NCBI GenBank assembly: GCA_020425605.1
Contig: JAGQRH010000007.1
Location: 76,834 to 140,833 of the forward strand
Length of the DNA stretch: 64,000 nucleotides
Direction: 5' to 3'
DNA from: Planctomycetota bacterium
GTDB taxonomy: Bacteria > Planctomycetota > UBA8742 > UBA2392
The notes beneath the pieces were generated by a model. That model saw only the letters and a list, made by a program, of their open reading frames with translations, was not told where the DNA came from and did not search any database. The position numbers and the translations under genes were made by a program. Within the stretch, counting starts at the first letter, position 1, and each line of letters begins with the position of its first letter. Positions 13,834 through 39,454 of this stretch are shown here, in pieces.

Positions 13834-13884
13834 CGCGCCGTAAGTCGTTGCCAATACTGCCTGCCCTTTCAATTCGGCGGGTGC

Positions 13885-14856: not shown

Positions 14857-14871
14857 GAAGCGGGAGGCGCT

Positions 14872-15351: not shown

Positions 15352-15365
15352 CAGCGGGAGACTTC

Positions 15366-17414: not shown

Positions 17415-17417
17415 AGC

Positions 17418-21859: not shown

Positions 21860-21935
21860 TTTGGGGCTTTTGGACGGCTATGTTGACCGGTCCTCAATAG
21901 ATTCCGGTCCCGGAACCCGCTAGAAAGGCGGCTAC

Positions 21936-22781: not shown

Positions 22782-22807
22782 GCCCACAGGGCACAAAGGA
22801 GTAAGTC

Positions 22808-23311: not shown

Positions 23312-23384
23312 CGCGCTGACTTGAAGCTCACTTACGAATATGTCCCGGCCCCACGGGTCGGTATCGGAACGAAGGAGTAGTGCC

Positions 23385-24866
23385 ATGGCAGACGCTGAAC
23401 AGCAGAAGCAGCCCGGCGAAGCGCAAGCTGAAGAGGGTTCGCTGCTCGACGAGATCATGTCGCAGTCAAAAATGAAGCCGGCCGACGAGGGCTATGAGGT
23501 CGCCAAGCTCGGCGTCCAGGCCTTCCTGAAGGAAATCCTCGCCCCTGACAGCAAGTTCGCCAAGGCCGACAAGGCCGCAGTGGACCAGATGATCGGCGAG
23601 ATCGACAAAAAGCTCAGCGCGCAGGTCGACCAGATCCTGCACAACCCGGAAGTCCAGAAGCTGGAAAGTGCCTGGCGCGGGCTGAAGATGCTCGTTGACC
23701 GCACCGACTTCCGCGAAAACGTGAAGATCGAGATGCTCAACATCAGCAAGGAACAGCTGATGGAGGATTTCGAGGACGCGCCCGAGCTGCAGAAATCCGG
23801 GCTCTACAAGCACGTCTACACAGCCGAGTACGGTACGTTCGGCGGCGAGCCCTACGGTGCAATCATCGGCAACTACGACTTCGGGCCCGGCCCGCAGGAT
23901 GTCGCGCTGCTGAGCAAGGTCGCGGCAGTCGCCACCATGTCGCACGCGCCGTTCATCGCGGCGGCCGGCCCCAAGTTCTTCGGGCTGGACGACTACCAGG
24001 GCCTGCCGAACCTGAAGGACCTGAAGTCAATCATGGAAGGCCCGCAGTACACCAAGTGGCAGTCCTTCCGTGAGTCGGAAGACGCCCGCAGCGTCGGGCT
24101 TACCTGCCCGCGCTTCCTGCTGCGGCTGCCGTACGGCGAAAACACCAAGCCGGTCAAGGCGTTCAACTATGAAGAGAACGTGCGCGACAACCACGCTTCA
24201 TACCTGTGGGGCAACACGGCCTTTGCATTCGCCACACGTTTGACGGAAAGCTTTGCAAAGTTCCGTTGGTGCCCGAACATCATCGGCCCACAGTCGGGTG
24301 GCGCGGTCGAAGACCTGCCGCTTCACCAGTTCGACAGCATGGGCGAGATCGAGACCAAGATCCCGACCGAAGTGCTGATTTCTGAGCGGCGCGAGTACGA
24401 GCTGTCGGAGGAAGGCTTCATCGGGCTGACCATGCGCAAGGGCAGCGATAACGCCTGCTTCTTCAGCGCAAACAGCTGCCAGAAGGCCAAGAACTTCGGC
24501 CAGAGCGCCGAGGGCAAGGAAGCCGAGCTGAACTACCGCCTCGGCACACAGCTTCCATACCTGTTTATCGTGAACAGGCTGGCACACTACATCAAGGTGC
24601 TCCAGCGCGAGCAGATCGGCTCATGGAAGGAAAAGGACGACCTGTCACGTGAGCTCAACAAGTGGATCGGCCAGTACGTGGCCGACACCGACAATCCGTC
24701 ACCCGCGATCCGCAGCCGCTGCCCGCTTCGCAGCGCGAGCATCCTGGTTGACGACGTACCGGGTGAGGCAGGCTGGTACAAGGTCAGCATGCAGGTTCGC
24801 CCGCACTTCAAGTACATGGGCGCATTCTTCACGCTCGGCCTGGTTGGAAAGCTCGACAAGAAGTAG
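23385..24866 (+). CDS. tssC: T6SS contractile sheath large subunit TssC (VipB)
   Basis: ORF 23340-24866. I prefer ATG 23385 (MADAEQQK...), preceded by GAAGGAG. TssC-like LESAWRGLKMLVDRTD, VKIEMLNISKEQL and PRFLLRLPYG. Confidence 0.93.
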   Translation: MADAEQQKQPGEAQAEEGSLLDEIMSQSKMKPADEGYEVAKLGVQAFLKEILAPDSKFAKADKAAVDQMIGEIDKKLSAQVDQILHNPEVQKLESAWRGLKMLVDRTDFRENVKIEMLNISKEQLMEDFEDAPELQKSGLYKHVYTAEYGTFGGEPYGAIIGNYDFGPGPQDVALLSKVAAVATMSHAPFIAAAGPKFFGLDDYQGLPNLKDLKSIMEGPQYTKWQSFRESEDARSVGLTCPRFLLRLPYGENTKPVKAFNYEENVRDNHASYLWGNTAFAFATRLTESFAKFRWCPNIIGPQSGGAVEDLPLHQFDSMGEIETKIPTEVLISERREYELSEEGFIGLTMRKGSDNACFFSANSCQKAKNFGQSAEGKEAELNYRLGTQLPYLFIVNRLAHYIKVLQREQIGSWKEKDDLSRELNKWIGQYVADTDNPSPAIRSRCPLRSASILVDDVPGEAGWYKVSMQVRPHFKYMGAFFTLGLVGKLDKK

Positions 24867-25002
24867 GCGGCAGCGGGCGTGTCCAGTCGGATGGGGTTTG
24901 GTTGAGGCTTGAAACAGTCTGCAAACCTGACACGCCAAAAGCAGGGATCGACGGCGGAAGCACATCTCTGAAGGGTAGGCGCCTCGGAGTTTGCAGGACG
25001 CG

Positions 25003-25163
25003 TAAGATTGTTTTATAGTTTTTACGTTCTAACTAATTTTGTTTCATTCTTGGCGTTCTTTTTGACGCGGCGTATTGTTCTAGTGTCGCCGATGGGGCGC
25101 AAGAGACCAAAAAAACTAATCGAACTGTAAGATTTAGGCGCAGTATTCACCAGGAGATCAGCC
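25003..25163 (+). promoter_or_regulatory. AT-rich regulatory/promoter region upstream of hcp, including a near-consensus sigma-54-type -24/-12 element (TGGC-N7-TTGA at 25051-25065)
   Basis: This is the only conspicuously AT-rich stretch in the T6SS locus (GTAAGATTGTTTTATAGTTTTTACGTTCTAACTAATTTTGTTTCATTC...). TGGCGTTCTTTTTGAC matches TGGCAC-N5-TTGC except that the -12 C is replaced by A. AGGAG RBS at 25152-25156. Confidence 0.3.
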
Positions 25164-25649
25164 ATGGCCAGCATGAAAGTGTTCATGAAGATTGACGGGA
25201 TGCCGGGTAGCAGCCAGGACAAGGATCACTCGGATTGGTGTGACGTCCGCGGCTTCGAGCACGCGATGGAATACCCGTTCGACATGCGCGAAAACAAGGG
25301 TCGCGGCGAGCCCGTTCACGGCGCCTGCAGCGTCAGCAAGGAAATCGACAAGGCATCGCCCAAGATCTTCGAGGCGCTGGCCAAGAAGAAGAAGGTCAAG
25401 GAAGTCGACATCGAGTTCTGGCGCGACAACCCGACCGAGGGTGGCAGCGAGAAGTACTTCACCATCAAGCTCAAGGACTGCCGCGTTGTCCAGGCCAAGC
25501 CCTATATGCCGACGGCCGGCGGCGCAAGCGCCGAAGATGCCATGAGCCACATGGAGCAGGTCGGCTTCGCCTACCGCCAGATCGAATGGACCTGGTTGAG
25601 CGGTGGACAGGTTCCGACCACGTTCGACTTCAGCAACCCGGACGCCTAA
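25164..25649 (+). CDS. hcp: T6SS inner tube protein Hcp (TssD)
   Basis: 161 aa. Hcp hallmark MKIDGMPGSSQDKDHSDWCDV..FEHAM......, KEIDKASPKIFEAL and FTIKLKDCRVV. Confidence 0.93.
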   Translation: MASMKVFMKIDGMPGSSQDKDHSDWCDVRGFEHAMEYPFDMRENKGRGEPVHGACSVSKEIDKASPKIFEALAKKKKVKEVDIEFWRDNPTEGGSEKYFTIKLKDCRVVQAKPYMPTAGGASAEDAMSHMEQVGFAYRQIEWTWLSGGQVPTTFDFSNPDA

Positions 25650-25658
25650 TGATCTCTG

Positions 25659-25694
25659 CCGGGTGGGGCGGGCAGCAGCCCGCCCCATGCCCGG
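25659..25694 (+). terminator. GC-rich stem-loop immediately after hcp (attenuator or mRNA-stabilising hairpin; no U-tract)
   Basis: GGGGCGGGC-AGCA-GCCCGCCCC (25665-25686) forms a perfect 9-bp stem, extended by CCGGG/CCCGG. It lies 10 nt after the hcp stop and just before the tssE RBS AGGAG. Confidence 0.4.
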
Positions 25695-25709
25695 TAGGAG
25701 CCTTGCCCA

Positions 25710-26126
25710 ATGTTTCAGAAGCGAACGCTTTTCGAGAGGTTGAAGAACCCCGAAGGAACCACCGCACGCACGTTGGAAGAAGACACCAACGCGCAAGTGC
25801 GGTCGATCCTTCGAAACCTCGCGCGCATTCTGAACGCAAGGGTAGGCCAGGCGCCAGCTCAAATGGACTTCGGTATTCCCTCACCCAGTGAGATCGCCCA
25901 GGGTTATCCGGAATCCCTGACGACGATGCAGAAGACCATCCGCAAGAGCATTGAGCGCTACGAGCCAAGGCTGAAGGACGTACAGGTTTTGCAGATCGAG
26001 AGCGACGACATTCGATTGGCGGTGCGCTTCCAGGTATCAGCGCGTTTGGCAACGTCAAAGGAAGGGCGGCACGTCAGTTTCGATACACTGATGGACCCCT
26101 CCGGACACGTGAACCTCAACGCCTGA
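25710..26126 (+). CDS. tssE: T6SS baseplate protein TssE (gp25-like)
   Basis: 138 aa. TLFERL..........V..ILRNLARILNAR.G and DFGIPS are typical of TssE/GPW-gp25. Synteny before tssF. Confidence 0.88.
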   Translation: MFQKRTLFERLKNPEGTTARTLEEDTNAQVRSILRNLARILNARVGQAPAQMDFGIPSPSEIAQGYPESLTTMQKTIRKSIERYEPRLKDVQVLQIESDDIRLAVRFQVSARLATSKEGRHVSFDTLMDPSGHVNLNA

Positions 26127-26164
26127 TGCGCCAGCGCAACGCCCCGACAACGGGACGGTAGGGC

Positions 26165-27913
26165 GTGTTCAACAAGTACTATCAAGATGAGCTGGTCTTC
26201 CTGCGGGACATGGGGCGCGAATTCAGCGCAGCCAACCCCGAGGCCGCACGCTTCCTCGCCGAGCCCGGTAGCGACCCTGACGTCGAGCGCATGCTGGAAG
26301 GCTTTGCTTTCCTGACCGCAAAGCTGCGCCAGAAGCTCGACGACGAGCTACCCGAATTTACGCACTCGCTGGCCGAGATGTTCTGGCCGCACTATCTGCG
26401 CCCCATCCCCAGCACGACCATCATGCAGTTCGAGCACGCCAATAAGGACACAGCCGAGCTGAAGCAGTTGCAGGCGGGCATCGAAATCGACAGCGCGCCT
26501 GTGGACGGCACACGCTGCCGCTTCCGCACGACCGCCGGCTTTGACCTGCTTCCCCTGCAATTGACGGAGGTACAACTTCGCCGAGAAGCTCCAGCACGCC
26601 TGCGCTTGCGGCTTGCGGCGCCGCCCAAACTCGGGCTGGAAAAGGCCGGGCTGAAGTCGCTCCGCCTGCACCTTTCCGGCGAATCTGCCGTGACGCGCTC
26701 GCTTTACGTGGCGCTGCTGCGCCACGTTCGTCGGGTCGTCATTCGCAAGGGTGACGGCGCGGATGGATCCGAGAGCTATGAATTGCCTGCGTCCGCCATC
26801 AGGCCCGTTGGCCTGGGCGAGAATGAGGCGCTGCTCGGCGGCCCCGGCCCGAGCTTCCCGGGTTTCCGCCTGCTTCAGGAGTACTTCACCGCGCCGGCCA
26901 AGTTCATGTTCATAGATCTGGACCGACTCGACGGCACGGCCGCGTTTGGCGGCGAACATCAGTTCGTCGTGGACTTCGAGTTCTCGCGCCTGCCGGACAA
27001 CATGCCACCCGTCAGCAAGGCGAACCTGCAGCTCAATTGCGTGCCGGCCGTGAACCTCTTCAAGCACGATGCCGACCCGATCCGGCTTGAGCGGGGCCGT
27101 ACCGAATACGCTGTGCGCCCGGCGGGCGACGATCCGCGCCACTTTGAAGTGCATTCGATCGACCGCGTCTACGGCCTTGAAGTCGGAAGTGCCCAGGAGC
27201 GGGAGTACAGCGCCCAGTTCAAGCTTGCCCGCTCAGGCCGCCGCAACGAGCTGTTCTATCACGCACGTCGCAGGGAAGCCGTCACCGGCTCCGGCAGCGA
27301 AATGATGATGACGTTCCTGGATCCCGAAGATCCGGATGCACGACCGAACGTCGAGACTGTCACCATCGACCTGACCTGCACCAATGGGCATCTGCCCTCC
27401 CGACTGGACGCCGGAGACATCTCGGTGAAGACCGGCAATGCGCCGATCTTTGCTCGATACCAGAACATCACGCGCCCAACGCCAACCGTGCCTCCGCCCT
27501 TGAAGGATGACCTTCACTGGCGCCTGATCGGGCACCTGTCGCTCAACTACATGTCGCTCCTGAGTGTCGACGCGCTTCGAAGCGTGATCGGCCTCTACAA
27601 CTTCCGCGCCCGCGTCGACCGCCAGACGGAGCAGGCACATTCCCGGCTGCTTGAGGGCATCAAGGGCGCCAATGGCGCACCGACATCCATCCTGGTTGAC
27701 GGCATTCCCGTCCGCGGACTGGACGTCGAGTTGACGGTCGATGAGGACCTGCTGAACGGTGAGGGAGAGACCTACCTGTTCGGAACGATTCTCAATGAGT
27801 TTTTTGCCCAGTACGTATCGTTGAATTCTTTCAGCCGCCTGAGCGTAAAGGGCGCGAAACGTGGAGAGGTCTTCGAATGGCCGGCTCGGATTGGCAAACG
27901 CGCCATCCTCTAG
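26165..27913 (+). CDS. tssF: T6SS baseplate protein TssF
   Basis: 582 aa with a GTG start. N-terminal hallmark FNKYYQDELVFLRDMGREFSAANPEAARFL....DPDVERMLEGFAFLTAKL. Confidence 0.93.
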   Translation: MFNKYYQDELVFLRDMGREFSAANPEAARFLAEPGSDPDVERMLEGFAFLTAKLRQKLDDELPEFTHSLAEMFWPHYLRPIPSTTIMQFEHANKDTAELKQLQAGIEIDSAPVDGTRCRFRTTAGFDLLPLQLTEVQLRREAPARLRLRLAAPPKLGLEKAGLKSLRLHLSGESAVTRSLYVALLRHVRRVVIRKGDGADGSESYELPASAIRPVGLGENEALLGGPGPSFPGFRLLQEYFTAPAKFMFIDLDRLDGTAAFGGEHQFVVDFEFSRLPDNMPPVSKANLQLNCVPAVNLFKHDADPIRLERGRTEYAVRPAGDDPRHFEVHSIDRVYGLEVGSAQEREYSAQFKLARSGRRNELFYHARRREAVTGSGSEMMMTFLDPEDPDARPNVETVTIDLTCTNGHLPSRLDAGDISVKTGNAPIFARYQNITRPTPTVPPPLKDDLHWRLIGHLSLNYMSLLSVDALRSVIGLYNFRARVDRQTEQAHSRLLEGIKGANGAPTSILVDGIPVRGLDVELTVDEDLLNGEGETYLFGTILNEFFAQYVSLNSFSRLSVKGAKRGEVFEWPARIGKRAIL

Positions 27914-28908
27914 CTACGCAATTGCTTCAGAACGGGAATCACTTCTCGTTCTATGAAGCAGTGCGCCTGCTTCACGGTCTGCACCGTGATGCGCCCAAGC
28001 TTGGGCGACAGGGACCGCCGGAGCTCGAGCGCGTCCGTATCCGCCCGTTGCTGAGCATGAGTTTTCCGGCGGCCGACATCGCCCACGTAGAGTCGAAAGA
28101 GATGCCCGGCGGCACCGAGCGTTTCCAGCTCGACGTCACGTTCATGGGACTTTACGGCTCCAGCAGCCCGCTGCCGAGCTTTTACACCGAAGACCTCATC
28201 CGGCTCGAAAACGACGAAAGTCTGCTTCGCGGCTTTCTCGACCTGTTCCACCACCGCCTGTTCAGCCTGCTTTTCCGCACCTGGGAAAAGTATCGCCACA
28301 CGGTTCAGTACGACGCAGAAGGCAGCGACTACTACTCGCAGCGTCTGCTGACGCTGATCGGCGCGACCCTGGAGTACCTGCCACCGGATGAGTCGATGCG
28401 ACCCGGTCGCCTGCTCGCGTATGCCGGCCTTCTTACCCAGCAACCGCGAAGTGCAGCGTCATTGCGCGCCCTGCTTGCAGACCACTTCGAGGAAGTCCCG
28501 GTAGACGTCGACCAATGCCGCGGGCGCTGGTGCGACATTCCTCCGCGGCAGCGCAATCGCCTCGGACAAGCCAATTGTGCCCTGGGGCAGGACACCGCGC
28601 TCGGCTCGGCCGTGTTTGACCGCGCGGGGAACTTCGGTATCGACCTCGGCCCGATGGACTTCGACACCTGGCTCGAGTACCTGCCGGACGGCGCCAACAT
28701 TGCACAATTGCGCGAGTTGACGGACCTGTTCAACAGCGACTGCCTCGACTATGAAGTCACCATGATCCTGCGCGGTGAAACCATGAAACGGGCGCAGTTA
28801 TCGAGCAACCACACACGCCTCGGCTGGTCAAGCTGGCTGGGCGAGAAGTCCCCCCACGACGAGACTGTCACGTTCAAGTTCAAAGGATGGAAACATGGTC
28901 GAGGTTGA
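27877..28908 (+). CDS. tssG: T6SS baseplate protein TssG
   Basis: 343 aa. FSFYEAVRLL and FMGLYGSSSPLPSFYTE signatures. Overlaps the tssF end by 37 nt, suggesting coupling. Confidence 0.9.
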   Translation: MAGSDWQTRHPLATQLLQNGNHFSFYEAVRLLHGLHRDAPKLGRQGPPELERVRIRPLLSMSFPAADIAHVESKEMPGGTERFQLDVTFMGLYGSSSPLPSFYTEDLIRLENDESLLRGFLDLFHHRLFSLLFRTWEKYRHTVQYDAEGSDYYSQRLLTLIGATLEYLPPDESMRPGRLLAYAGLLTQQPRSAASLRALLADHFEEVPVDVDQCRGRWCDIPPRQRNRLGQANCALGQDTALGSAVFDRAGNFGIDLGPMDFDTWLEYLPDGANIAQLRELTDLFNSDCLDYEVTMILRGETMKRAQLSSNHTRLGWSSWLGEKSPHDETVTFKFKGWKHGRG

Positions 28909-31636
28909 TCTCAAGCGACTCGTTGGTCGGCTGAACCGCTTCTGCACGCGCGCACTTGAAGCGGCGGCGGGCAACTGCGTGTCGCGCACCAACTACGAGG
29001 TCACGGTTGAGCACATGCTGCAGGCGATGCTGGAAGATCCCAATGCGGACATCCAGCAGGCGCTGCAGAAGTTCGAAATCGATCCCGGCCGGGTGAGCAA
29101 GCAACTCACGCGTGACATTGACGGGCTCAAGACCGGCAACGCCGGTCGGCCGGTGTTCAGCCCGCTGCTGACGTCGTGGTTCCAGAACGCCTGGCTGATC
29201 GCGAGCATTGAGCACAATCAGGCCGAGATCCGCAGCGGGAACTTGCTTGAGGCGATGCTGTCCAATCCGGCACGCCTCGCCAGCGGGGACTACATCGACA
29301 TCCTTACGGAGATGCCGGTCGCGGAGCTGTCGAAGAACTTCGGCGACATCATGTCCACCTCGCAGGAAACGGCAGCGCAGGCCGGAGTCGCGCCAAGCAG
29401 CGGCGGGGCGCCAGGTGCCGAGCCAAGCCGCGACGGAACGGCCCTGCAGCGCTTCTGCCAGAATTTCACCGAACGCGCCCGCGCAGGCGAGCTTGACCCG
29501 GTTTTCGGCCGTGACGGCGAGATCCGCCAGATGATCGACATCCTCGCCCGTCGCCGAAAAAACAACCCGATCTGTGTAGGCGAGCCGGGCGTGGGCAAGA
29601 GCGCCGTGGTCGAGGGCCTGGCCATGCGCATTGTGGAAGGCGACGTGCCGGAAGTACTCCAGAACGTCGACATCATCGGCCTTGACGTCGGCCTGCTGCA
29701 GGCGGGCGCCAGCGTGAAGGGCGAGTTCGAAAAGCGCCTCAAGGGCGTGATCGACGAGATCAAGGCCAGCCCCAAGCCGCTGATTCTCTTCATCGACGAA
29801 GCCCACACCCTGATCGGCGCCGGCGGCGCGGCCGGGACGGGCGACGCGGGCCAGCTTCTCAAGCCGGCGCTCGCGCGTGGCGAGCTGCGCACGGTCGCGG
29901 CCACCACATGGTCCGAGTACAAGAAGTACTTCGAAAAGGACGCGGCTTTGGCCCGTCGCTTTCAACTCGTGAAGCTCGACGAGCCCGGGCCGGAACTGAC
30001 CGCAACCATGCTGCGCGGCCTGCGCGCGAACTACGAAAAGGCCCACAAGGTAGTCATTCGCGACGAGGCGCTGGTCGCCGCGGCCGAGCTTGGCTCGCGC
30101 TACATCGCCGGGCGCCAGCAGCCTGACAAGGGCATCGACCTGGTCGATACCGCGGCCGCGCGCGTGAAGGTGGCGTTCATCAGCAAGCCGGCCGAGCTGC
30201 AGGACCTCGAGCGCAGCATCGAGACGGATCAGCGCACGCTGAACGCCCTCAAGCGCGACGCCGACACCGGCGGCCAGAACGACGCCGAGCAGATGAAGGA
30301 AATTGAGGAGCGCATCGAGGCGACCAACAAGAAGGTCGAGGAGTTCAAAGGCCGCTGGATGAAAGAGCGCGAGGCCGCCCACAAGGTTGTCGCGGTCCGG
30401 AACAAGCTGAACGATGTGCTCGCGCCCAGGGACGCAAAGCCCGCGGACAAGGCCGAGCCAAAAAAGGACGAGCCAAAGGGCGACAAAAAAGAAGACGCAA
30501 AGACCGCCGAAGTCCCGGCCGAGCCGAAGCTGGACCTTCCCGATGACCCGGACGCGCTCAAGAAGATGTTTGAGCAGGCCTTGGCCGACTTGCGCAAGCT
30601 TCAGGGCAAGGATCCGCTGGTTCCAGTGGAAGTCACCAGCGAAGTCGTCGCCAAGGTCGTCGGCGACTGGACCGGCATTCCGGTCGGCAACATGGTCGCC
30701 GACCAGGCCGCGCGTTTGCTGACTATGGAGCAAGAGCTAACCAAGCGCGTAAAAGGCCAGGATCACGTGATGAAGGCCATCGCGACCACCATCCGCGCAA
30801 ACAAGGCCGGGCTCGGCAACCCGGACGCGCCGATCGGCGTCAGCCTGTTCGTTGGGCCGAGCGGCGTCGGCAAGACCGAGACCGCGCTGGCCGTCGCCGA
30901 CCTGCTTTTCGGCGGCGAGCGCTTCATGACGACGATCAACATGTCCGAGTACCAGGAAAAGCACACCGTCAGCCGCCTGATCGGCAGCCCCCCGGGCTAC
31001 GTCGGCTACGGCGAAGGCGGCCAGCTCACGGAAGCGGTCCGGCAGCGCCCCTACAGCGTCGTGTTGCTGGACGAAGTCGAGAAGGCCGACCTTGAGGTCA
31101 TGAACCTGTTCTACCAGGTGTTCGACAAGGGAATGCTCAATGACGGCGAAGGCCGTGAAATCGACTTCAAAAACACCGTCATATTCCTGACCAGCAACCT
31201 GGCGACAGACATCATCACAGAAGCCTGCAGCGATGGCGACAAGCCGGACATGGACGAGCTGGTCAGCATGATCCGACCGCAGCTCAGCGCCCACTTCAAG
31301 CCCGCACTGCTGGCACGCATGAGCATCCTGCCGTTCTTCACGATCGACCAGGGCGCGATGGTGATGATTACGAACCTGAAGCTGAACAAGATCGTGCGCC
31401 AGATGCACGCGACACACGGCATGACACTCGCCTTCGACGACAAGGTCACGGAGGCCATCGCCGCCCGCTGCAAGGAAGTCGAAACGGGTGCCCGCAACAT
31501 CGACCACATCATCCGCGGGAACCTGTTGCCGCAGATGAGTACACAGCTCCTTCAAAAAATGAGCGAGGGCGACCTTCCCGCGCAGATGAAGGTCGGAATC
31601 GGTGAGAGCGGCGACTTTTCGTTCGCATTCGCGTAG
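28895..31636 (+). CDS. clpV: T6SS AAA+ ATPase ClpV (TssH), with a K/E/D/P-rich insertion in the middle region
   Basis: 913 aa. ClpV-type N-domain LVGRLNRFCTRALEAAAGNCVSRTNYEVTVEHML. Two Walker A motifs, GEPGVGKSAV and GPSGVGKTE. Low-complexity segment RDAKPADKAEPKKDEPKGDKKEDAKTAEVPAEPK at ~30421-30545. Confidence 0.93.
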   Translation: MVEVDLKRLVGRLNRFCTRALEAAAGNCVSRTNYEVTVEHMLQAMLEDPNADIQQALQKFEIDPGRVSKQLTRDIDGLKTGNAGRPVFSPLLTSWFQNAWLIASIEHNQAEIRSGNLLEAMLSNPARLASGDYIDILTEMPVAELSKNFGDIMSTSQETAAQAGVAPSSGGAPGAEPSRDGTALQRFCQNFTERARAGELDPVFGRDGEIRQMIDILARRRKNNPICVGEPGVGKSAVVEGLAMRIVEGDVPEVLQNVDIIGLDVGLLQAGASVKGEFEKRLKGVIDEIKASPKPLILFIDEAHTLIGAGGAAGTGDAGQLLKPALARGELRTVAATTWSEYKKYFEKDAALARRFQLVKLDEPGPELTATMLRGLRANYEKAHKVVIRDEALVAAAELGSRYIAGRQQPDKGIDLVDTAAARVKVAFISKPAELQDLERSIETDQRTLNALKRDADTGGQNDAEQMKEIEERIEATNKKVEEFKGRWMKEREAAHKVVAVRNKLNDVLAPRDAKPADKAEPKKDEPKGDKKEDAKTAEVPAEPKLDLPDDPDALKKMFEQALADLRKLQGKDPLVPVEVTSEVVAKVVGDWTGIPVGNMVADQAARLLTMEQELTKRVKGQDHVMKAIATTIRANKAGLGNPDAPIGVSLFVGPSGVGKTETALAVADLLFGGERFMTTINMSEYQEKHTVSRLIGSPPGYVGYGEGGQLTEAVRQRPYSVVLLDEVEKADLEVMNLFYQVFDKGMLNDGEGREIDFKNTVIFLTSNLATDIITEACSDGDKPDMDELVSMIRPQLSAHFKPALLARMSILPFFTIDQGAMVMITNLKLNKIVRQMHATHGMTLAFDDKVTEAIAARCKEVETGARNIDHIIRGNLLPQMSTQLLQKMSEGDLPAQMKVGIGESGDFSFAFA

Positions 31637-31695: not shown

Positions 31696-34218
31696 ATGCC
31701 GGAGATCGCGACTACACAGGTGATGCAGTTTCATTCGGATGCCGTCGATGACGGCGACCTGCAGATCACCAAGCTGGAAGGCGAAGAATCGCTCAACAAG
31801 CCGTACGAGTTCCGACTCGAGCTGGCCTCGACGAAGACGGATATTGACCACGCGGAAGTCCTCAAAAAAGCCGCCTGGATCGGTATCAAGCAGGGCATCC
31901 AGCTCGCCGGCCAGGACACGCGCGCCGCGACGACGCTGAAGATCCACGGAGTGATCCAGAGCTTCGAGCAGGTGGGCAAAGAGCTCGAGCTTGTCAGGTA
32001 CCGCGCTGTGCTGGTTCCAAAGTTGCAACGTCTCGGGCTGCAGCACCAGAGCCGCATTTTCCAGAACAAGAAGATCCCCGACATCATCAAGACAATCTGC
32101 GACGAACACGGCGTAGAAGTCGACATGGGCAAGCTCGGCAGTTACGACGAGCGTGAGTACGTCGTCCAGTACGAGGAATCCGACCTCGACTTCATCCATC
32201 GCTGGATGGAGCACGAGGGCATCTTCTACTACTTCGTCCAGAGTGAAGACTTCGAGAAAGTCGTGTTCGCCGACGCCCCCGAGGGCTACGGCAGCATGCA
32301 GGGCAACTCGACGTTCAGCTACAAACCCGCGCCGGAAGAGGACAGCCGTGTCGAGGCCGGTGACTCTGAAGAGGCGGCCGAGGACTGGTTCAAGGAAGAA
32401 GTGATCACCTCAATCTCGGCCAGGACCAACCAGCTGCCCAAGAAAGTCGTTCTCAAGGACTACAACTGGCAGGACCCGGACACTGACCTGAAGTGCGAGT
32501 CCGAGATTCACAAGGAAGGCGTCGGCGTCGTCTACAAGTACAACAACCACTACCAGACCAAAGAACAGGGCAAGAAGCTCGCCGACATCCGCGCACAGGA
32601 AATCAACTGCCGCGAGACGATGTTCCACGGCACATCCGACTGCCGTGGCTACCGCGCAGGCATGGTCTTCAGCATGGAAGACCACTACCGCGGCAGCATG
32701 AACACCAACTACCTGCTGGTCGAGGTGAAGCACCGCGCCACGCAGGCCGTTGCACTCGGCACGGCATCCGGCGGCGGTGCAAGCTATTCCAACAGCTACA
32801 AGGCGATCCTGAAGGAAAAGACCTTCCGCCCGGAATTCAAGACCAAGTGGCCGCAGATCAAGGGCGTGATGCACGCAAAGGTCGACGGCGGCGACGCCGG
32901 CACGCCCTACGCCCAGATCGACGACAAGGGCCGTTACAAGATCAAGATGCCGATCGACATCGGCGACAGCAAAGACGGAAGCGCCAGCAAGTACATCCGC
33001 AAGGCCGAGCCCTACGCCGGCCCGAACCAGGGCATGCACTTCCCGCTGCTGAAGAACTCGGAAGTCATCCTGACGCACGTGGACGGCGACCCCGACCGCC
33101 CGGTGGTCGCGGCCGCGATGTTCAACGCCAACAACGGCTCGGTCGTCAGCCAGGCCAACTCGACGCAAAACGTGATCGCCACGCCGGGCGGCACCAAGTT
33201 CATCATGGATGACACGGTGGATTCGCAGTTCGCCTACCTGCACACGAAAGATGAAAAGGTGCTGATGAAGCTCGACGCCAAGAGCGGCGACGAGAACGTG
33301 AACATCAAGACCACAGACAAGAACGAGATCAAGCTGCACAGCGGCGACGAGAACCTGTTCATCAAGAGCGCCAAGGAAAACACCTACCTGCGGCTCGGCA
33401 AAGCCGCCAGTGAAGCCGGCCAGACCGAAGGCAGCGTCACGGTTACCGGCGGCGACGACGGGTTCTTCCTCACGACCGACGCGAAGTGGAACCAGTACGT
33501 CAAGAAAGACGCCAACATCATCATCAAGGGCAAGGAGAACAAGCAGGTCGGCGACGCGTCCGAGTGGACCATCAAGGGCACCAGCGCCTGCTATAACCAC
33601 GGCGACTGGTTCAAGCTGAACTTTGCGCTCACTTACGGCATTGAGATCGGCTTCACCGCCGACTTCAAGCTGAGCGGCGGTATTGCCATCGCCGTCGGCG
33701 CGAGCTTTGCCATCAAGGGCGGCGTCAGCGTAGCCTTCGAGGCCTCGGCCGCCCTCAAAGTCAGCAAGTCGAAGGAGAAGAATTACGTCTTCGACGGCCT
33801 GACCAACGTTGCCAAGAAAGATCGCGAAGACAGCGCGGAGAAGAACTTCACGCTTTCAACCAAACAGAATATGACCATCAAGGCCAAGCAGAAGGTGGTC
33901 ATCCAGGGCAACGCTGCATTCCCGCCTGCCGACCCGAGTCTCGCCGCGCGCATGGCTGCGTGGGCCGCCGGCGCCATGGCCTCGGTGAAGGGCAAGTCAG
34001 CCAGCAGCCCGCCGCCCCCGCCGCCGCCGCCCGTACCGGGGCCGCCGCCACTTCCAAGATCCAAGATCGAAGTGGAGGGACAAAAGATTCTGCTGCTGTT
34101 CAACACGACCACGATGATCCGTCTGGACTCCAGCGGCATCAAGTTGAAGTGCGGCGCGAGCGAACTCGTCATCGGGCCTTCCGGTATCACCGCCAAGCCG
34201 ATGGTCACAGGAGGCTAG
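31696..34218 (+). CDS. vgrG: T6SS spike protein VgrG (TssI), with an Ala-rich/poly-proline insert near the C-terminus
   Basis: 840 aa. gp27/gp5-type N-terminus (L.GEESLNKPYEFRLEL, RIFQNKKIPDII, REYVVQYEESDLDFIHRWMEHEGIFYYF). Beta-helical repeats. SSPPPPPPPPVPGPPPLP at ~34008-34055, followed by terminal beta strands. Confidence 0.92.
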   Translation: MPEIATTQVMQFHSDAVDDGDLQITKLEGEESLNKPYEFRLELASTKTDIDHAEVLKKAAWIGIKQGIQLAGQDTRAATTLKIHGVIQSFEQVGKELELVRYRAVLVPKLQRLGLQHQSRIFQNKKIPDIIKTICDEHGVEVDMGKLGSYDEREYVVQYEESDLDFIHRWMEHEGIFYYFVQSEDFEKVVFADAPEGYGSMQGNSTFSYKPAPEEDSRVEAGDSEEAAEDWFKEEVITSISARTNQLPKKVVLKDYNWQDPDTDLKCESEIHKEGVGVVYKYNNHYQTKEQGKKLADIRAQEINCRETMFHGTSDCRGYRAGMVFSMEDHYRGSMNTNYLLVEVKHRATQAVALGTASGGGASYSNSYKAILKEKTFRPEFKTKWPQIKGVMHAKVDGGDAGTPYAQIDDKGRYKIKMPIDIGDSKDGSASKYIRKAEPYAGPNQGMHFPLLKNSEVILTHVDGDPDRPVVAAAMFNANNGSVVSQANSTQNVIATPGGTKFIMDDTVDSQFAYLHTKDEKVLMKLDAKSGDENVNIKTTDKNEIKLHSGDENLFIKSAKENTYLRLGKAASEAGQTEGSVTVTGGDDGFFLTTDAKWNQYVKKDANIIIKGKENKQVGDASEWTIKGTSACYNHGDWFKLNFALTYGIEIGFTADFKLSGGIAIAVGASFAIKGGVSVAFEASAALKVSKSKEKNYVFDGLTNVAKKDREDSAEKNFTLSTKQNMTIKAKQKVVIQGNAAFPPADPSLAARMAAWAAGAMASVKGKSASSPPPPPPPPVPGPPPLPRSKIEVEGQKILLLFNTTTMIRLDSSGIKLKCGASELVIGPSGITAKPMVTGG

Positions 34219-34221
34219 ACC

Positions 34222-36498
34222 GTGAAAGTCCGCAACCGTACGGATTTCCCGTTCGCGCCTCTGCTCGGCCGCGTGAACTATCCCAACTACGCCGTGACGT
34301 GCACGGTGAAGGGGACGTTCGCGCTGAAGCCGGGTGGCGTGCTTGAGCCGCTGGACGAGCAGCCCCAGTTCGAAGGCGACGTGCCCAGCAAAGCCGAGCG
34401 GCCGGAGTGTCTCTACGCCGCCGACCTTGTGCCCTACAAGCCGAAGGCCGACCTGCTGCTGCGGGCCGAATGCCACACGCCCGGCGGGAAGGGCGTAACG
34501 GCGTGCCCGGTTATCTTCAGCGTCGGCCAGTGGTCGAAAGAGCTGGCGGTGATCGGCAACCGCAAGTGGGAGAAGAGCCTCGTATTCAGCAAGATGACCG
34601 AGCCGGATGTCTTCAACCGCGTCGAGCTGACCTGGGGCAATGCCTTCGGCGGCGAGAAGTTCGCACTGAACCCGGCCGGCAAGGGCCGCAAAGACGGTTT
34701 GCTGCCGAACGTTGAGTACCCCGACGAACTGGTCAAAAGCGCAGGCAATCAGCCAACGCCGGCGAGCTTCGGCCCGATCGACCGTACCTGGAAGCAGCGC
34801 GCAAGCAAGCTTGGCACATACGACAAGAAGTGGCAGAAAGAGCGCTGGCCTGCATACCCCAAGGACCTCGACTGGACACACTTCAACGCGGCTGCAGAGG
34901 ACCAGCAGGTTCCGTTCCTGCGCGGCGACGAGAGCTTCGCACTGACGAACATGCACGCGGAGCACGCAAGCCTGAAGGGCGAGTTGCCGTCACTGCGTGT
35001 GCGCTGCATCGCGCGCCTGAAGCCGGAACAGGGCGAAGACTTGCTCGTTCGCGACGTGGCGATGAACCTCGATACGCTCTACATCGACGTGCCGAAGATG
35101 CAGGTGACGCTGGTCTGGCGCGGCGTGTGTGACATTCGCGAGGAAGAAGGTGAAGACGTTGCCGATGTGCTCGTGTTCAGCGAGCCGCTGGCTGACTCGC
35201 CGGCCACAATCCAGCAAGTCATGCCCTGGTTTGAAGAAGAGCCAGATGACGCCGACGCCCTCCCGCCCGAGCCGCCGCTTGTCGTAGACACCGGCGTGAT
35301 GGAGGGCGACGCGCTCGCCGGCGCGATCGAAGCAATGGCGAAACAAACCGTCGGCCAACTCAACACCATGTCGCCGGTCGCTCTCAGCATGGCCCCGGCG
35401 GCGTTTGAAGGCTTCGGCCAGATGCGCTCGGCACTGGCGGGAATCGCCTCGCGCCTCAGGGCGGCCGGGCAGCCAGTCCCGCCGTCGCTCAGCCAGGTGA
35501 TGAGCGACTTTGAAAGCGACCCCGACCTGAAGGACGGCGAATCCGACCTTATGGTCGCGCAAGCGTTGGCGCTGCTGCCGGCGGCCGCGGCACTGACCGG
35601 CGCCCAGCTGGCGGGCAAGATCCGATCCGGCGAAGCCCCGCACCGCGATTTCGCGGGCGTGGACATGGCGGGCGAAGACCTGTCGGGCTCTGACCTGTCA
35701 CAAGCCGACTTCACCGGCGCCAACCTGGCGGACACCGTCTTCACGGGCTGCAAGCTCGACGGCGCGCTGTTCAGCAGTGCGAATCTGGCCGGCGCGAATC
35801 TGGCCGGCGTAAAGGCCGAGCGGGTCGATTTCACGGCAGCCAATCTGGAAGGCGCCGACCTTACGGGCGCGGGCTTCCCGCAGTGCAGTTTCGACCAAAT
35901 CAAGGCCACCGGCATCAAGCTCGACAAGGCGGAGCTGCCGGGCGCCACGTTCGCCGATGCCGACCTTGTCAATGCCGAGGCAGGCGAAGCGCAACTCAAG
36001 CAGGCCGACCTTTCACGGGCCGACCTGACGGGCGCGAACTTCGAGAAGGCCGACCTGTCCGAAGCCACGCTCAATTACGTGAAAGCCGACGGTGTGAACT
36101 TCAAGCACTGCAAAGGCGCGAGTCTGCGAGGCGCCGAAGCAAACTTCAAAGGCGCCGACTTCGAGGAAGCTGAACTGCCCGGCGCGATCTTCGAGAATGC
36201 GAACCTGGAAGATGCGAACTTCCGCTTTGCGATGCTCAAGCGTGCGCTGTTCGCGAACGCAAACCTGAGCAAGGCTGTACTGTTTGGTGCAGTCGTGCGC
36301 GGCGGCAGCCTGCGCAAGGCAAACATGGCCGGCGCCCAGGCCGGCAACGCAGACTTTTTCGAATGCGACTTTGAGAAGTCGAACCTCAAGGGCGCATCGC
36401 TGATCACCAGCAATTGCTACGGCGCCGCCTTTCGCGACGCAGACACAAGCGGCGCAGACCTGACCGAAACGAACCTCAAACAGACACTGCTGGCTTAA
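34222..36498 (+). CDS. DUF2169-domain protein fused to a C-terminal pentapeptide-repeat domain (~290 aa of A(D/N)LXX repeats)
   Basis: 758 aa with a GTG start 3 nt after the vgrG stop. The N-terminal ~330 aa are DUF2169-like (NRTDFPFAPLLGRV...VKGTFAL..GG....DEQP....D.........DLVPYKPKADLLL). From ~35640 onward there are continuous pentapeptide repeats (DLSGSDLSQADFTGANLADTVFTGCKLDGALF...). Confidence 0.8.
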   Translation: MKVRNRTDFPFAPLLGRVNYPNYAVTCTVKGTFALKPGGVLEPLDEQPQFEGDVPSKAERPECLYAADLVPYKPKADLLLRAECHTPGGKGVTACPVIFSVGQWSKELAVIGNRKWEKSLVFSKMTEPDVFNRVELTWGNAFGGEKFALNPAGKGRKDGLLPNVEYPDELVKSAGNQPTPASFGPIDRTWKQRASKLGTYDKKWQKERWPAYPKDLDWTHFNAAAEDQQVPFLRGDESFALTNMHAEHASLKGELPSLRVRCIARLKPEQGEDLLVRDVAMNLDTLYIDVPKMQVTLVWRGVCDIREEEGEDVADVLVFSEPLADSPATIQQVMPWFEEEPDDADALPPEPPLVVDTGVMEGDALAGAIEAMAKQTVGQLNTMSPVALSMAPAAFEGFGQMRSALAGIASRLRAAGQPVPPSLSQVMSDFESDPDLKDGESDLMVAQALALLPAAAALTGAQLAGKIRSGEAPHRDFAGVDMAGEDLSGSDLSQADFTGANLADTVFTGCKLDGALFSSANLAGANLAGVKAERVDFTAANLEGADLTGAGFPQCSFDQIKATGIKLDKAELPGATFADADLVNAEAGEAQLKQADLSRADLTGANFEKADLSEATLNYVKADGVNFKHCKGASLRGAEANFKGADFEEAELPGAIFENANLEDANFRFAMLKRALFANANLSKAVLFGAVVRGGSLRKANMAGAQAGNADFFECDFEKSNLKGASLITSNCYGAAFRDADTSGADLTETNLKQTLLA

Positions 36499-36499
36499 C

Positions 36500-38428
36500 A
36501 TGACGACTGGATCAAAACCGGAAAAGGCAGACGCGCTGGCGACCATCAAGGAAGCGGCCGGCGATGTATCGCGCGCACTGACCGGCGTCGATTTCTCGGG
36601 GCTTGACCTGTCGAGTGTCGACTTCAGTAGACTGAGGCTTGGCGGCGTCAACTTCGGCGCCTGCAACCTCGACGGCGCGAATTTTACCGATGCCGTCGTC
36701 ACACGCTGCAACTTTCGCGGCGCGCGTCTGCGAAAGGCCGTGGCCAGCCGCGCGGTGCTGACCGCCTGCGACTGGGGCAACGCCGATTTTGAATCCGCCG
36801 CGCTGGAAGAAGCCAACTTCATCGGTGGCACGGCCGGCGGCGCAAGGTTCAACAAGGCCAGCCTGTCCCGCGCGCGCTTCGCCAACATGGAACTGGCCAA
36901 GGTCGACTTCCAGCAGGTCACGGCCACCGACTGCGGCTTCGACGGCTGTGTGGTGGCGGGCGCCAATTTTGACGGCGCGAACCTCTCCGGTGCCGGCTTC
37001 ATCCGCGCAGACGTTCGGGGGGCCTCGCTGCGCGGCGTAACACTGGCGCAGACTTTGTTCTTGATGGCCGACCTGCGCGGCGCAGATTTCGAGAGCGCAA
37101 CCGTCAGCGAGACGCTGTTCGACGATGCCGATCTGCGCGAGGCACAGAACCTGCCGGTTCAACTGGACGGCTCCAGCTTCGGTGACGCGAACCTTGAGGG
37201 ACTGGATCTCAACGGCCGAAGCATGACGCAATGCGTGTTCACTGGCGCGAAGCTGGCGGGTACGAATCTCAGCGGCGCTGACGTGACTTCGTGCGACTTC
37301 GCACTCTCGGACCTGTCGGGTGCCAAACTCGACAATGCCATCGCCGGCGAAGCCAACTTTTCCGGCGCGACTGTTACAGGCGCCACGTTCGGCGGCACGC
37401 AACTGATTTACGCCGCCTTCGGCGAGTGCGTGCTCGACGGCCGCGACTTCAGCACCTGCGACCTGCGCGGCGCCGACTTCAACAAGTGCTCGCTGGCCGA
37501 AACCAACTTCATGGGCGCGGTGCTGCGCGGCGCAAACTTCACATCCGTGGACCTCAGGAAATACAGCTTCCGAGGCTGGCAACTCATGGAGGTCGACTTC
37601 AGCGGCTCTGACCTGCGCGAAGCGGATTTCTCGTACGCCGACCTTACCAGCGCCGTCTTCAACGATGCGCTGCTGGAGAGCGCCGACTTCCGCAACGCCG
37701 TCTGCAAGGACACCAGCTTCGCCGGCACGGAGCTCAAGGGTGCGCGCTTTGACGCCGCCAACGTGGACAAGGCGGACTTCACCAACGCGAAGCTGGCGGG
37801 CGTGGATTTCTCCGGCGCGACCCTTAAGGGCGTGATGTTCAACGGCGTCGACCTGACCACGATGCGCATCGACCAGGTACAGAGCTTCCAGTGCAGCTTC
37901 ATCGGCGCGGACCTGCATGGCCTGAAGCTGGCGGGCTCCAGCTTCGTGATGGGCGACTTCACCGATGCGAAGCTGGAGGGTGCGGACTTGACCGGCTGCG
38001 ACCTGTCGCAGGCGACCTTCACCAACGCCAACTGCAAGGCCGCGAAGTTCACCGGCGCGAAGCTGCAGGCGGCACTGTTCGACAAGACGAACCTCGCCGA
38101 GGCGCTGCTGAATGACATCACGGCACACATGGCAAACTTCCAGGAAGCGGAGATGGCCGGCGCGCGCCTCGACGGCGCGATGCTGAAGGAAACGGTGTTC
38201 AACGCCGCCAAGGCGAAGCAGGCAAGCTTCCGCAAGGCAAACCTGAACTACGCACTGCTTGAGAATGCCGAGATCGAGCTGGCTGATCTTTCCGGCGCAA
38301 ACCTGTCACACGCCAGCCTGCACTGCGCGCGCGAGACCGGCGCAAAGTTTGACGGCGCAAACCTGAAGAAGACCATCCGCACTGACGCGGACCGACTGGA
38401 GGCTGAAGCATGGAAACCCAAACGCTGA
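36500..38428 (+). CDS. pentapeptide-repeat protein (almost entirely repeats, 642 aa)
   Basis: Repeats run from ~residue 25 to ~620 (VDFSGLDLSSVDFSRLRLGGVNFGACNLDGANFTDAVV...). The start follows the upstream stop by 1 nt. The 3' end overlaps the next gene by 19 nt. Confidence 0.85.
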   Translation: MTTGSKPEKADALATIKEAAGDVSRALTGVDFSGLDLSSVDFSRLRLGGVNFGACNLDGANFTDAVVTRCNFRGARLRKAVASRAVLTACDWGNADFESAALEEANFIGGTAGGARFNKASLSRARFANMELAKVDFQQVTATDCGFDGCVVAGANFDGANLSGAGFIRADVRGASLRGVTLAQTLFLMADLRGADFESATVSETLFDDADLREAQNLPVQLDGSSFGDANLEGLDLNGRSMTQCVFTGAKLAGTNLSGADVTSCDFALSDLSGAKLDNAIAGEANFSGATVTGATFGGTQLIYAAFGECVLDGRDFSTCDLRGADFNKCSLAETNFMGAVLRGANFTSVDLRKYSFRGWQLMEVDFSGSDLREADFSYADLTSAVFNDALLESADFRNAVCKDTSFAGTELKGARFDAANVDKADFTNAKLAGVDFSGATLKGVMFNGVDLTTMRIDQVQSFQCSFIGADLHGLKLAGSSFVMGDFTDAKLEGADLTGCDLSQATFTNANCKAAKFTGAKLQAALFDKTNLAEALLNDITAHMANFQEAEMAGARLDGAMLKETVFNAAKAKQASFRKANLNYALLENAEIELADLSGANLSHASLHCARETGAKFDGANLKKTIRTDADRLEAEAWKPKR

Positions 38429-38949
38429 ACACGCTGCTGACCGGCACCGACGTCAAGCTCACGCCCGCAAGCGTGCTGCAGACCTCCGGCCGCATGCTGA
38501 CGGTCATGACGGCCGAAGGCGAAGTCGTCGCCGAGAACGCGCTGGCTTTCCCGTACCAGCCGGTGAAGGGCGACAGCCTGCTGGTGATCGGTCAGGGCGA
38601 GCACTGGTTCGCGATCGGCCTGCTGGCCGCGCAAGGTGACATGGCGATCGCGTTTCCCGCCAACGCGGTGTTTTCGGCCCCGCGCGGCGAGATCAAGTTC
38701 AAGTCCGGCAAGGCGATCGACATGCACAGCCCCAACGTGCGCATCCGCGCAGGCAAGCTGGAGCTGCTGGCCAAGACCATCAGTGAAAAGGTCGACAACG
38801 CCTACCGCAGCGTCCGCAAGCTGCTGAAGCTGGATGCCGGGCGTATCAGCACCACCGTCGAAGAAACCACGCACACGCGCGCCGGGCGCTTCGTGGTGAA
38901 TGCCAAGCAGGACGTGAAGATGGACGGCGAGAAGATTTACCTGGGCTAG
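38410..38949 (+). CDS. DUF3540-like protein (family call from synteny plus weak recall)
   Basis: 179 aa. It sits in the recurrent vgrG-DUF2169-pentapeptide-DUF3540-DUF4150 gene order. The sequence is rich in beta-strand-like segments (GEIKFKSGKAIDMHSPNVRIRAGKLELLAK...). Confidence 0.55.
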   Translation: METQTLNTLLTGTDVKLTPASVLQTSGRMLTVMTAEGEVVAENALAFPYQPVKGDSLLVIGQGEHWFAIGLLAAQGDMAIAFPANAVFSAPRGEIKFKSGKAIDMHSPNVRIRAGKLELLAKTISEKVDNAYRSVRKLLKLDAGRISTTVEETTHTRAGRFVVNAKQDVKMDGEKIYLG

Positions 38950-38985
38950 TAAACGCGCGCTCACGCAAGCTGACAGGAGGCTGAC

Positions 38986-39396
38986 ATGTTTCCAGCATCG
39001 AATAAAGCGGCCGGCCAATGCATGGGCATGCCCGATGTGTGCAACGTTCCCGCACCGCCGGCGCCGCCCGTCCCGACACCGTTTCCCAACATCGCCATGT
39101 GCGCACAGGCGCAGCCGGGGTCCTTTTCCTTGAAAGTTAAGGTCGGCGGTGCCAACGCACTCGTCCAGACCAGCAAGATCACCATGAGCAGCGGCGACGA
39201 GGCCGGCAGCCTTGGCGGCGTCATGTCCGGCATGATCAAGGGCCCCTGCGAATACAAGATGGGCAGCATGAAGGTGAAATTCGAGGGCAAGGGCGCTGCG
39301 CACCTTACCTCTATGGTTGCACAGAACGGCAGCAACCCCAACGTGCCCGCCGGGCAACAGATCGCGCCGAGCCAGGTCGTCGTGATGGTCAACTGA
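38986..39396 (+). CDS. PAAR-like DUF4150 protein, stand-alone with no C-terminal toxin domain
   Basis: 136 aa. DUF4150 hallmark GMPDVCNVPAPPAPPVPTPFPNIA, then V.VGG.....TSKI.MSSGDEAG..GGV.SG...G...Y..GS.KVKFEGK.AA.L. Confidence 0.8.
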   Translation: MFPASNKAAGQCMGMPDVCNVPAPPAPPVPTPFPNIAMCAQAQPGSFSLKVKVGGANALVQTSKITMSSGDEAGSLGGVMSGMIKGPCEYKMGSMKVKFEGKGAAHLTSMVAQNGSNPNVPAGQQIAPSQVVVMVN

Positions 39397-39429
39397 TAGA
39401 CGCAACCCCACGTTATGGTAGTGTTTCGC

Positions 39430-39454
39430 TCCCGGGCGGGTGATCCGCCCGGGA
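39430..39454 (+). terminator. strong GC hairpin between the last T6SS gene and sdaA (terminator-like, short U-tail)
   Basis: TCCCGGGCGG-GTGAT-CCGCCCGGGA forms a perfect 10-bp stem, followed by TTGCATCT and then the sdaA ATG at 39463. Confidence 0.45.

Follow-up and report, generated by a model that had tools for sequence, protein, structure and literature searches.

A planctomycete type VI secretion operon with a probable Class III Tvp spike-assembly module as its 3' end

In a stretch of 64,000 nucleotides (nt) from an uncultured planctomycete (contig JAGQRH010000007.1, positions 76,834 to 140,833; hereafter the window), a type VI secretion system (T6SS) cluster ends in five genes that encode a VgrG spike protein, a DUF2169 domain fused to pentapeptide repeats (TvpAB), a second pentapeptide repeat protein (TvpB), a DUF3540 protein (TvpC) and a small PAAR-like tip protein of the DUF4150 family. 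This region is very likely a Class III Tvp spike-assembly module that would work by the mechanism described for Serratia marcescens. The assignment draws on the gene content and order, the tight coupling of the genes, the protein families encoded, an OB-fold in TvpC and the resemblance of its profile to spike proteins, a tip protein modelled with a PAAR-like fold, the conservation of the set and the co-variation of charge among its members. By homology to the Serratia system, the proteins would form physical complexes in which VgrG takes over the place of TvpC, the module would be required for firing, and the Tvp proteins would not be secreted. The full Class III Tvp set accompanies the only VgrG seen in a complete T6SS cluster of this organism, and the module is the 3' end of that operon.

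The domains of the five proteins were identified by Pfam and NCBIfam scans (Table 1). Their open reading frames (ORFs) are tightly packed: the first three are separated by 3 nt and then 1 nt, the fourth overlaps the third by 19 nt, and the fifth follows at a distance of 36 nt. The tvpAB gene begins with GTG 3 nt past the vgrG stop codon and tvpB with ATG 1 nt past that of tvpAB, and ribosome-binding sites resembling AGGAGG lie ahead of tvpAB, tvpC and paar. Neither Pfam nor NCBIfam detected a toxin domain in the five proteins, and the last 322 residues of VgrG showed none when scanned separately. No small ORF lies 3' of paar, where the next gene encodes an L-serine ammonia-lyase (sdaA, with a conserved start at 39463). 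An initial annotation made from the letters of the sequence had described this five-ORF layout, the domain calls, a toxin-less DUF4150 protein of 136 amino acids (aa), the missing immunity ORF and a closing hairpin, and all of these were recovered, positions included.

Table 1. Coordinates of the spike-assembly module, the hairpin that follows it and the rest of the T6SS cluster in the window.
Feature	Positions	Strand	Length and supporting matches
vgrG (tssI)	31696..34218	+	840 aa; Phage_GPD E 1.4e-72, Phage_base_V (Pfam), TIGR03361 E 1.9e-97
tvpAB (tagAB)	34222..36498	+	758 aa; DUF2169 E 1.8e-81, Pentapeptide E 1.6e-49
tvpB (tagB)	36500..38428	+	642 aa; Pentapeptide E 3.3e-94
tvpC (tagC)	38410..38949	+	179 aa; DUF3540 E 1.9e-21
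paar (tagD / Paar1-like)	38986..39396	+	136 aa; Tox-PAAR-like/DUF4150 E 8e-33
GC-rich hairpin	39430..39454	+	10-bp stem, 5-nt loop, no U-tract; between paar stop and sdaA start
Rest of T6SS cluster	12721..31636	+	Pfam matches; two FHA/TagH genes through clpV

The alternative gene names tagAB, tagB, tagC and tagD reportedly go back to Shalom in 2007, for Burkholderia. Even though the initial annotation regarded the function of this recurrent gene set as experimentally undescribed, that statement is outdated, as experiments have been reported from Burkholderia, B. glumae and S. marcescens. In Burkholderia, secretion of Hcp-5 depends on TagA/B-5, 'but not as an effector' (PMC6335564), and virulence of B. 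glumae needs three parts of the set, namely the DUF2169 domain, the repeats fused to it and the repeat protein of the second gene, each of them being necessary (PMC8747328). The set has been catalogued as DUF2169 "synteny type C", a type that accounts for some 37% of the DUF2169 genes (Sachar et al., J Biol Chem 2025; PMC11883445), and, in S. marcescens Db10, as the "Class III Tvp system" (Monlezun, Earl and Coulthurst, EMBO J 2026; PMC13373197). In the latter organism VgrG1-dependent Hcp secretion and killing require TvpAB, TvpB, TvpC and Paar1, none of which is dispensable, and in pull-downs TvpC and VgrG1 each bring along TvpAB, TvpB and Paar1, never each other (PMC13373197). According to the Serratia model, a TvpC trimer, consisting of an OB-fold together with a beta-prism but without gp27, nucleates a TvpAB-TvpB-PAAR cap in which VgrG then takes the place of TvpC; the tip is wrapped by TvpAB and closed in a seat-belt-like manner by TvpB, and mutations in the TvpC interface abolish function (PMC13373197). 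In the authors' proposal, a PAAR protein devoid of an effector domain leaves the baseplate cavity to be filled by the cap (PMC13373197). The suggestion of the initial annotation that the repeat proteins sit where an effector would normally be is essentially this published cavity-filling hypothesis.

The five protein types and their order in the window are those of the Serratia Class III system, which likewise comprises a DUF2169-repeat fusion, a repeat-only protein, an OB-fold DUF3540 protein and a small toxin-less DUF4150 PAAR protein. In both systems VgrG is long (840 aa here and 786 aa in Serratia), with an extension that lacks a recognizable toxin domain. An identical local order, tssB-C-hcp-E-F-G-clpV-vgrG-tagAB-tagB-tagC-tagD, is found in Burkholderia T6SS-5 (PMC6335564), where TagD, a PAAR-like protein of about 130 aa, has no effector domain and TagC is a DUF3540 protein, both as in the window. 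Synteny type C also has the same composition, namely a multidomain DUF2169-pentapeptide repeat protein with a further pentapeptide gene downstream of it, a DUF3540 protein, a DUF4150/PIPY protein and VgrG, although the PIPY motif reads PTPF in the PAAR protein studied here.

Applied to the window, the mechanism would proceed as follows. A TvpC trimer, composed of an OB-fold and a short beta-prism and devoid of a gp27 hub, would receive the hydrophobic DUF4150 cone, and the DUF2169 domain of TvpAB would grip the PIPY surface of that cone. The helical linker and pentapeptide beta-helix of TvpAB would then wrap the prism, with TvpB closing the pre-complex like a seat belt. VgrG, with its putative long C-terminal prism, would replace TvpC within the preformed cap, which would shield the tip and probably fill the baseplate cavity that is otherwise taken by an effector domain. 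Assembly and firing of the Hcp tube and sheath would become possible only after the VgrG exchange, and the Tvp proteins would be retained in the cell.

Among the individual components, TvpC is predicted to be a mimic of the VgrG tip, with an OB-fold and a short beta-prism but without the gp27 domain. It matches PF12059 (DUF3540) with 77.3 bits, against a gathering cut-off of 27.9, and belongs to a family of 1700 representatives at 50% identity that are stand-alone proteins, mostly of 170-215 aa. In an AlphaFold2 (AF2) monomer model, residues 14-75 form a beta-barrel with a predicted local distance difference test score (pLDDT) of 70-87, for which Foldseek returned the OB domains of IF1, RsgA and eIF5A (E ~3e-3), that is generic OB-folds and no VgrG. 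When a profile of 75 TvpC sequences was compared with the whole PDB, the five best matches were 8gra (a VgrG, E 0.0028), gp86, All3320, Afp8 and gp5, and these matches span the gp5-type OB motif 'PxxGDxVLV...YVxG' and the beta-helix after it. Diverse TvpC alignments are without any conserved stretch of 7-10 residues, a closer alignment retrieved mainly short contigs from metagenomes, and a tblastn search of TvpC against a plasmid collection gave no match. TvpC and the PAAR protein of the window are 100% identical to NCBI entries.

For the tip protein, the Tox-PAAR-like match covers residues 11-118 and no other domain was found. The six best PDB fold matches of its AF2 model (pLDDT 65), 4ku0, 9f4b, 4jiw, 9vyi, 4jiv and 6p1z, are all PAAR-repeat tip proteins; a sequence search against the PDB yielded a weak match to an Rhs N-terminus (E 0.011) and spurious repeat matches. 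The motif P30-T31-P32-F33 of this protein corresponds to PIPY in close relatives, and P30, P32, P34 and N35 are invariant in relatives. Homologues fall into 568 clusters, and as the best 120 of these are all 125-153 aa long, all of the 120 appear to be toxin-less.

TvpAB consists of a DUF2169 domain (residues 25-300, 276 residues), an acidic linker (residues 301-475, isoelectric point (pI) 4.05) and pentapeptide repeats (residues ~476-756). Its DUF2169 domain matches the crystal structure 8VTH with an E value of 1.3e-13 and keeps the loop motif GT(Y/F)DxxW, with Tyr200 and Trp204 aligning to the Phe and Trp of the 8VTH comparison. In V. parahaemolyticus, mutagenesis showed that this aromatic pair in the protruding DUF2169 loop contacts the PIPY prolines (PMC11883445), and the domain in TvpAB is accordingly predicted from its sequence to grip the DUF4150/PIPY cone. 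In a tblastn search of the DUF2169 domain against plasmids, the two records inspected showed only Class I and Class II contexts.

Conservation of the set was surveyed in related loci (designated L001 and so on), on contigs that came from genomes (9), from metagenomes (18) or by look-up (11) and that belong to Planctomycetota, Myxococcota and the gammaproteobacterial Ectothiorhodospiraceae. Wherever the flanking sequence sufficed, these loci had the order TvpAB-TvpB-TvpC-PAAR, the one exception being L039, where tvpAB lies on the opposite strand. A same-size five-gene set recurs in distant lineages in which TvpC identity falls to 25-40%, and the toxin-less PAAR protein of about 136 aa is kept. 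Conservation of the set in Planctomycetota, in Myxococcota and in some Gammaproteobacteria makes it probable that two-step spike assembly is an ancient, widespread pathway and no peculiarity of proteobacteria. Planctomycetota were already among the phyla listed with TvpA (PMC13373197), and the window therefore adds an example and not a concept; what can be added to the published model is the matching of charges, the existence of two TvpB size classes unrelated to VgrG length, and occasional fusions of PAAR to peptidase S41.

Lengths and charges were compared by Spearman correlation in 13 modules (the window, L001-L004, L020, L023, L031, L033, L035, L037, L038 and L040), which represent nine lineages; the sample is small, and relatedness is corrected for only crudely. 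The charge of the last 250 aa of VgrG correlated with that of TvpC (rho 0.79, n = 13; 0.80 with permutation p 0.013 over the 9 lineages), and the charge of the first 500 aa of VgrG gave a rho of 0.05 with the same partner. The VgrG tip was related inversely to the TvpAB linker and repeats (rho -0.71) and to TvpB (rho -0.65, not significant at n = 9), and the C-terminal part of TvpAB varied together with TvpB (rho 0.90). In the window itself the net charges are +12 for the VgrG tip, +3 for TvpC and +4 for the PAAR protein, and -36 and -22 for the C-terminal part of TvpAB and for TvpB, respectively. Such a pattern fits what the model predicts for a mimic of the VgrG tip and for wrappers that bind either core, and is supporting evidence for it, not proof. 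It is conceivable, although on balance doubtful, that an electrostatic code matches cap and spike tip, in which, lineage by lineage, TvpC copies the net charge of the tip of its own VgrG and the two repeat proteins carry the opposite one. If so, the code could set the specificity of Tvp proteins for one VgrG paralogue and let VgrG displace TvpC.

Several observations weigh against a Class III assignment or against parts of it. In Serratia, vai1 (DUF3192) lies between vgrG and tvpAB; it is missing here, as is an equivalent of SMDB11_2246. In B. glumae (group_5, PMC8747328), TagAB has 878 aa and the repeat protein 356 aa, as opposed to 758 aa and 642 aa (about 1.8x) in the window; with a TvpB of this size and a shorter TvpAB, the cap geometry may differ from that of the Serratia model. 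The PDB matches of the TvpC profile are weak (E 0.003-0.2), though coherent, and in the monomer model of TvpC the C-terminal half has low confidence and is partly helical, as would be expected of a trimeric prism, though this is no proof of one. Direct comparison of TvpC with the VgrG of the window by BLASTP was not significant, the best alignment being in the expected register at E = 5-22, and hhalign of the TvpC family (75 sequences) with a shallow alignment of 5 VgrG sequences gave a probability of 0.3%. Finally, the lineages behind the charge correlations are few and in part related to one another. Other departures from Serratia are the position of the module at the 3' end of the cluster, past clpV, a TvpC of 179 aa compared with at least 210 residues, a C-terminal hydrophobic helix and poly-proline insert in the VgrGs of this clade, and the host, which is a planctomycete and not an enterobacterium. 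The cluster also has a single VgrG where characterized examples have at least two, and the Burkholderia locus differs in that VgrG-5 carries a characterized C-terminal fusogenic domain and in that tssJ-K-L-M lie 3' of tagD, whereas here they are ahead of the sheath genes. These differences from the characterized examples are variations within the kind.

The Class I adaptor type was considered for this locus as well and rejected. In the Tap2 (Atu3641)-Tde2 system of Agrobacterium tumefaciens, the shared feature is that DUF2169 chaperones a DUF4150 tip on a cognate VgrG. However, the Class I adaptor is a single-domain DUF2169 protein that serves a PAAR-toxin fusion with an immunity gene, and the system has neither TvpB nor TvpC; in the window DUF2169 is fused to repeats, the PAAR protein is toxin-less and no immunity ORF is present. 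The three contrasts that the initial annotation had drawn with the Tap2/Tde2 arrangement are thus real.

Pentapeptide repeats fold as right-handed quadrilateral beta-helices, and their register could be followed throughout both proteins. TvpAB contains approximately 56 units in residues 476-756 (283 repeat residues) and TvpB approximately 120 units in residues 26-625 (600 residues), the latter in a single uninterrupted 5-residue phase. With a rise of 4.8 Å per four-unit coil, and assuming straight rods, the nominal lengths are 67 and 144 Å, so that the earlier figures, some 900 residues in repeats and rods about 7 and 14 nm long, hold arithmetically. Such long, uninterrupted runs, together with the tendency of Class III VgrGs to long prisms (PMC13373197), invite the alternative that the repeat beta-helices act as a molecular ruler or as a structural extension of the spike that is fired with it. 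A shorter VgrG (739 aa) does coincide with a shorter TvpAB (666 aa) and TvpB (394 aa) in L005/L023. Nevertheless, TvpB length is bimodal in related loci, with classes of 317-394 aa and 614-645 aa in the same position, and is not correlated with VgrG length, which ranges from 717 to 1139 aa (rho -0.34, p 0.26, n = 13). Long TvpBs accompany VgrGs of 717-954 aa and the short form is found with VgrGs of both 739 aa and 1139 aa, so that the size classes cut across VgrG lengths and a simple ruler is unlikely. In the Serratia model, moreover, the repeat domains wrap the tip and are neither an extension nor secreted (PMC13373197). The ruler or extension reading, which the initial annotation had put forward, therefore finds no support in the 13 modules as far as a simple ruler is concerned, and is given a small chance overall.

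Smaller still is the chance that the two pentapeptide proteins are a secreted payload of DNA-mimicking gyrase or topoisomerase inhibitors loaded via the DUF2169 domain, as the initial annotation had also suggested. The pentapeptide family includes the DNA mimics Qnr and MfpA and the type III secretion effectors PipB and PipB2, to all of which NCBIfam partial matches were obtained; both repeat proteins of the window are acidic (pI 4.7; 4.77 for TvpB), and no other effector is encoded beside the PAAR gene. However, all scores of the Qnr, MfpA, PipB and HetL models on TvpB were under their cut-offs, those of Qnr, MfpA and PipB far under, the best Qnr score being 149.7 bits against a cut-off of 240 and that of MfpA 112.5 against 360, and scores of this size are expected from repeat similarity alone. 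The window proteins are also 3-4x longer than Qnr and MfpA and are tied to the T6SS spike genetically, as well as physically in Serratia. Their charge is not conserved across orthologues, the net charges of orthologous TvpB and TvpAB ranging from -36 to +5; it mirrors the charge of the VgrG tip instead. In four lineages the repeat proteins are near-neutral or basic (pI 8.5 in L020; net -5 to +5 in L037, L033 and L023), which argues against DNA mimicry and would be incompatible with its conservation. Furthermore, no Serratia secretome was found to contain TvpAB or TvpB, both of which are needed for Hcp secretion itself (PMC13373197), and the Burkholderia protein is needed 'not as an effector' (PMC6335564). 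The variable charge, the low Qnr and MfpA scores and the published secretome and genetic data together contradict a role as secreted DNA-mimic cargo.

It is hardly credible that the region is a Class I or II adaptor locus that has degenerated, no longer functions and is now without the toxin and immunity genes it once had, as the lack of a PAAR toxin domain and of a following immunity gene might indicate, given that the five ORFs are intact and tightly coupled, that the set recurs at the same sizes in distant lineages with the toxin-less PAAR retained, that a toxin-less small PAAR is the published norm for Class III (PMC13373197), and that this vgrG is the sole one seen in an otherwise complete 13-gene T6SS cluster.

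Under the favoured Class III reading, the C-terminal extension of VgrG deserves attention, as it continues for about 310 aa past the canonical gp27/gp5 core. A VgrG profile matched solved VgrG structures over residues 20-530, and to about residue 613 in the case of 8gra, and Pfam gave no domain of any kind in the last 322 aa. Residues 614-840 are beta-rich by sequence pattern and are interrupted by an insert with a hydrophobic helix, AARMAAWAAGAMAS, at residues ~749-762 (positions 33940-34215 of the window encode residues ~749-840) and a poly-proline tract, PPPPPPPPVPGPPP, at residues 772-785, after which a final beta-rich segment of about 50 aa follows. Helix, poly-proline tract and end segment are conserved in L001-L004, and the helix and proline insert is specific to this clade. 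A homologue search with the C-terminal 320 aa of VgrG returned none, the candidate list probably being swamped by poly-proline words. For Serratia VgrG1 a cryptic C-terminus with membrane activity has been proposed, to which the C-terminus described here may be related. Should the electrostatic code exist, the acidic cap could mask the helix/poly-proline insert of the basic VgrG tip until firing, and the masked insert would be a candidate for such a cryptic payload. The VgrG of L035 has a different hydrophobic helix at the equivalent place, and a motif 'GI.(I/L).CG.SE(L/I).(I/M).P.GI' near the end of the protein is common to several Class III VgrGs.

Some related loci depart from the simple five-gene arrangement. 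A freshwater metagenome contig and a metagenome-assembled genome of Polyangiaceae (L029:7243-8364 and L008:725-1921) carry, directly 3' of the DUF3540 gene, a DUF4150 PAAR gene fused to Peptidase_S41 (E 1.8e-37 and 6.8e-35). Such PAAR-effector fusions in a setting of Class III type run counter to the published generalization that PAAR proteins are small in this class; L029 also has two DUF3540 genes. Candidate effectors were seen 3' of the PAAR gene in L038 (10492-10941, a protein of 149 aa with a weak match to Ntox46) and L035 (10417-11223, a transglutaminase-core protein of 268 aa), and the window is without such a gene. Tandem vgrG-tvp modules occur in L006/L027, where the PAAR gene has another vgrG (749 aa) and another DUF2169 gene directly 3' of it (L006 2368-4617 and 5067-5777). 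An orphan vgrG-tvp-paar island was found in L031, with no T6SS core genes within 10 kb.

At the 3' boundary of the module, the arms of the hairpin (39430-39439 and 39445-39454, 10 nt each) are 100% complementary, and the 74-nt intergenic region that holds it has a folding energy of -31.2 kcal/mol (z = -2.8). A terminator scan did not flag the hairpin because it lacks a U-tract. GC-rich inverted repeats at most about 100 nt from the PAAR stop codon are also present in L002, L003 and L004 and, in weaker form, in L001, and the hairpin is a probable operon-end stem-loop. Membership of sdaA in the module was considered and rejected, as the gene lies 3' of the PAAR gene only in the window and in L001; it is about 3 kb away on the opposite strand in L004, and is absent in L002 and L003. 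Other genes 3' of the module are unrelated to it, including those for a receiver-domain protein and a surface repeat protein and pilB/T/C-like genes, and no effector-immunity pair adjoins the module.

The rest of the cluster comprises two FHA/TagH genes, tssJ, tssK, tssL, tssM, tagF, tssA, tssB, tssC, hcp, tssE, tssF, tssG and clpV. Upstream of the two FHA/TagH genes, positions 4164-10034 encode a PpkA-like Ser/Thr kinase of 1956 aa with multiple WD40 propellers, and positions 11143-12645, directly 5' of the same two genes, encode a TagR-like FGE-sulfatase/thioredoxin-like protein of 500 aa. Together with the FHA genes, the kinase and the FGE-sulfatase protein resemble the PpkA-TagR-Fha module for T6SS control by threonine phosphorylation, and in L040 the kinase and FGE-sulfatase domains are joined in one fused protein. 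On the other side of the module, positions 42307-44751 encode a secreted repeat protein of 814 aa in which two internal segments of about 120 aa are near-identical and for which a Pfam scan was without match. Its C-terminus has a hydrophobic helix followed by RRRRR, resembling a sorting signal, and TPR and PilB/PilT/PilC-like genes come next.

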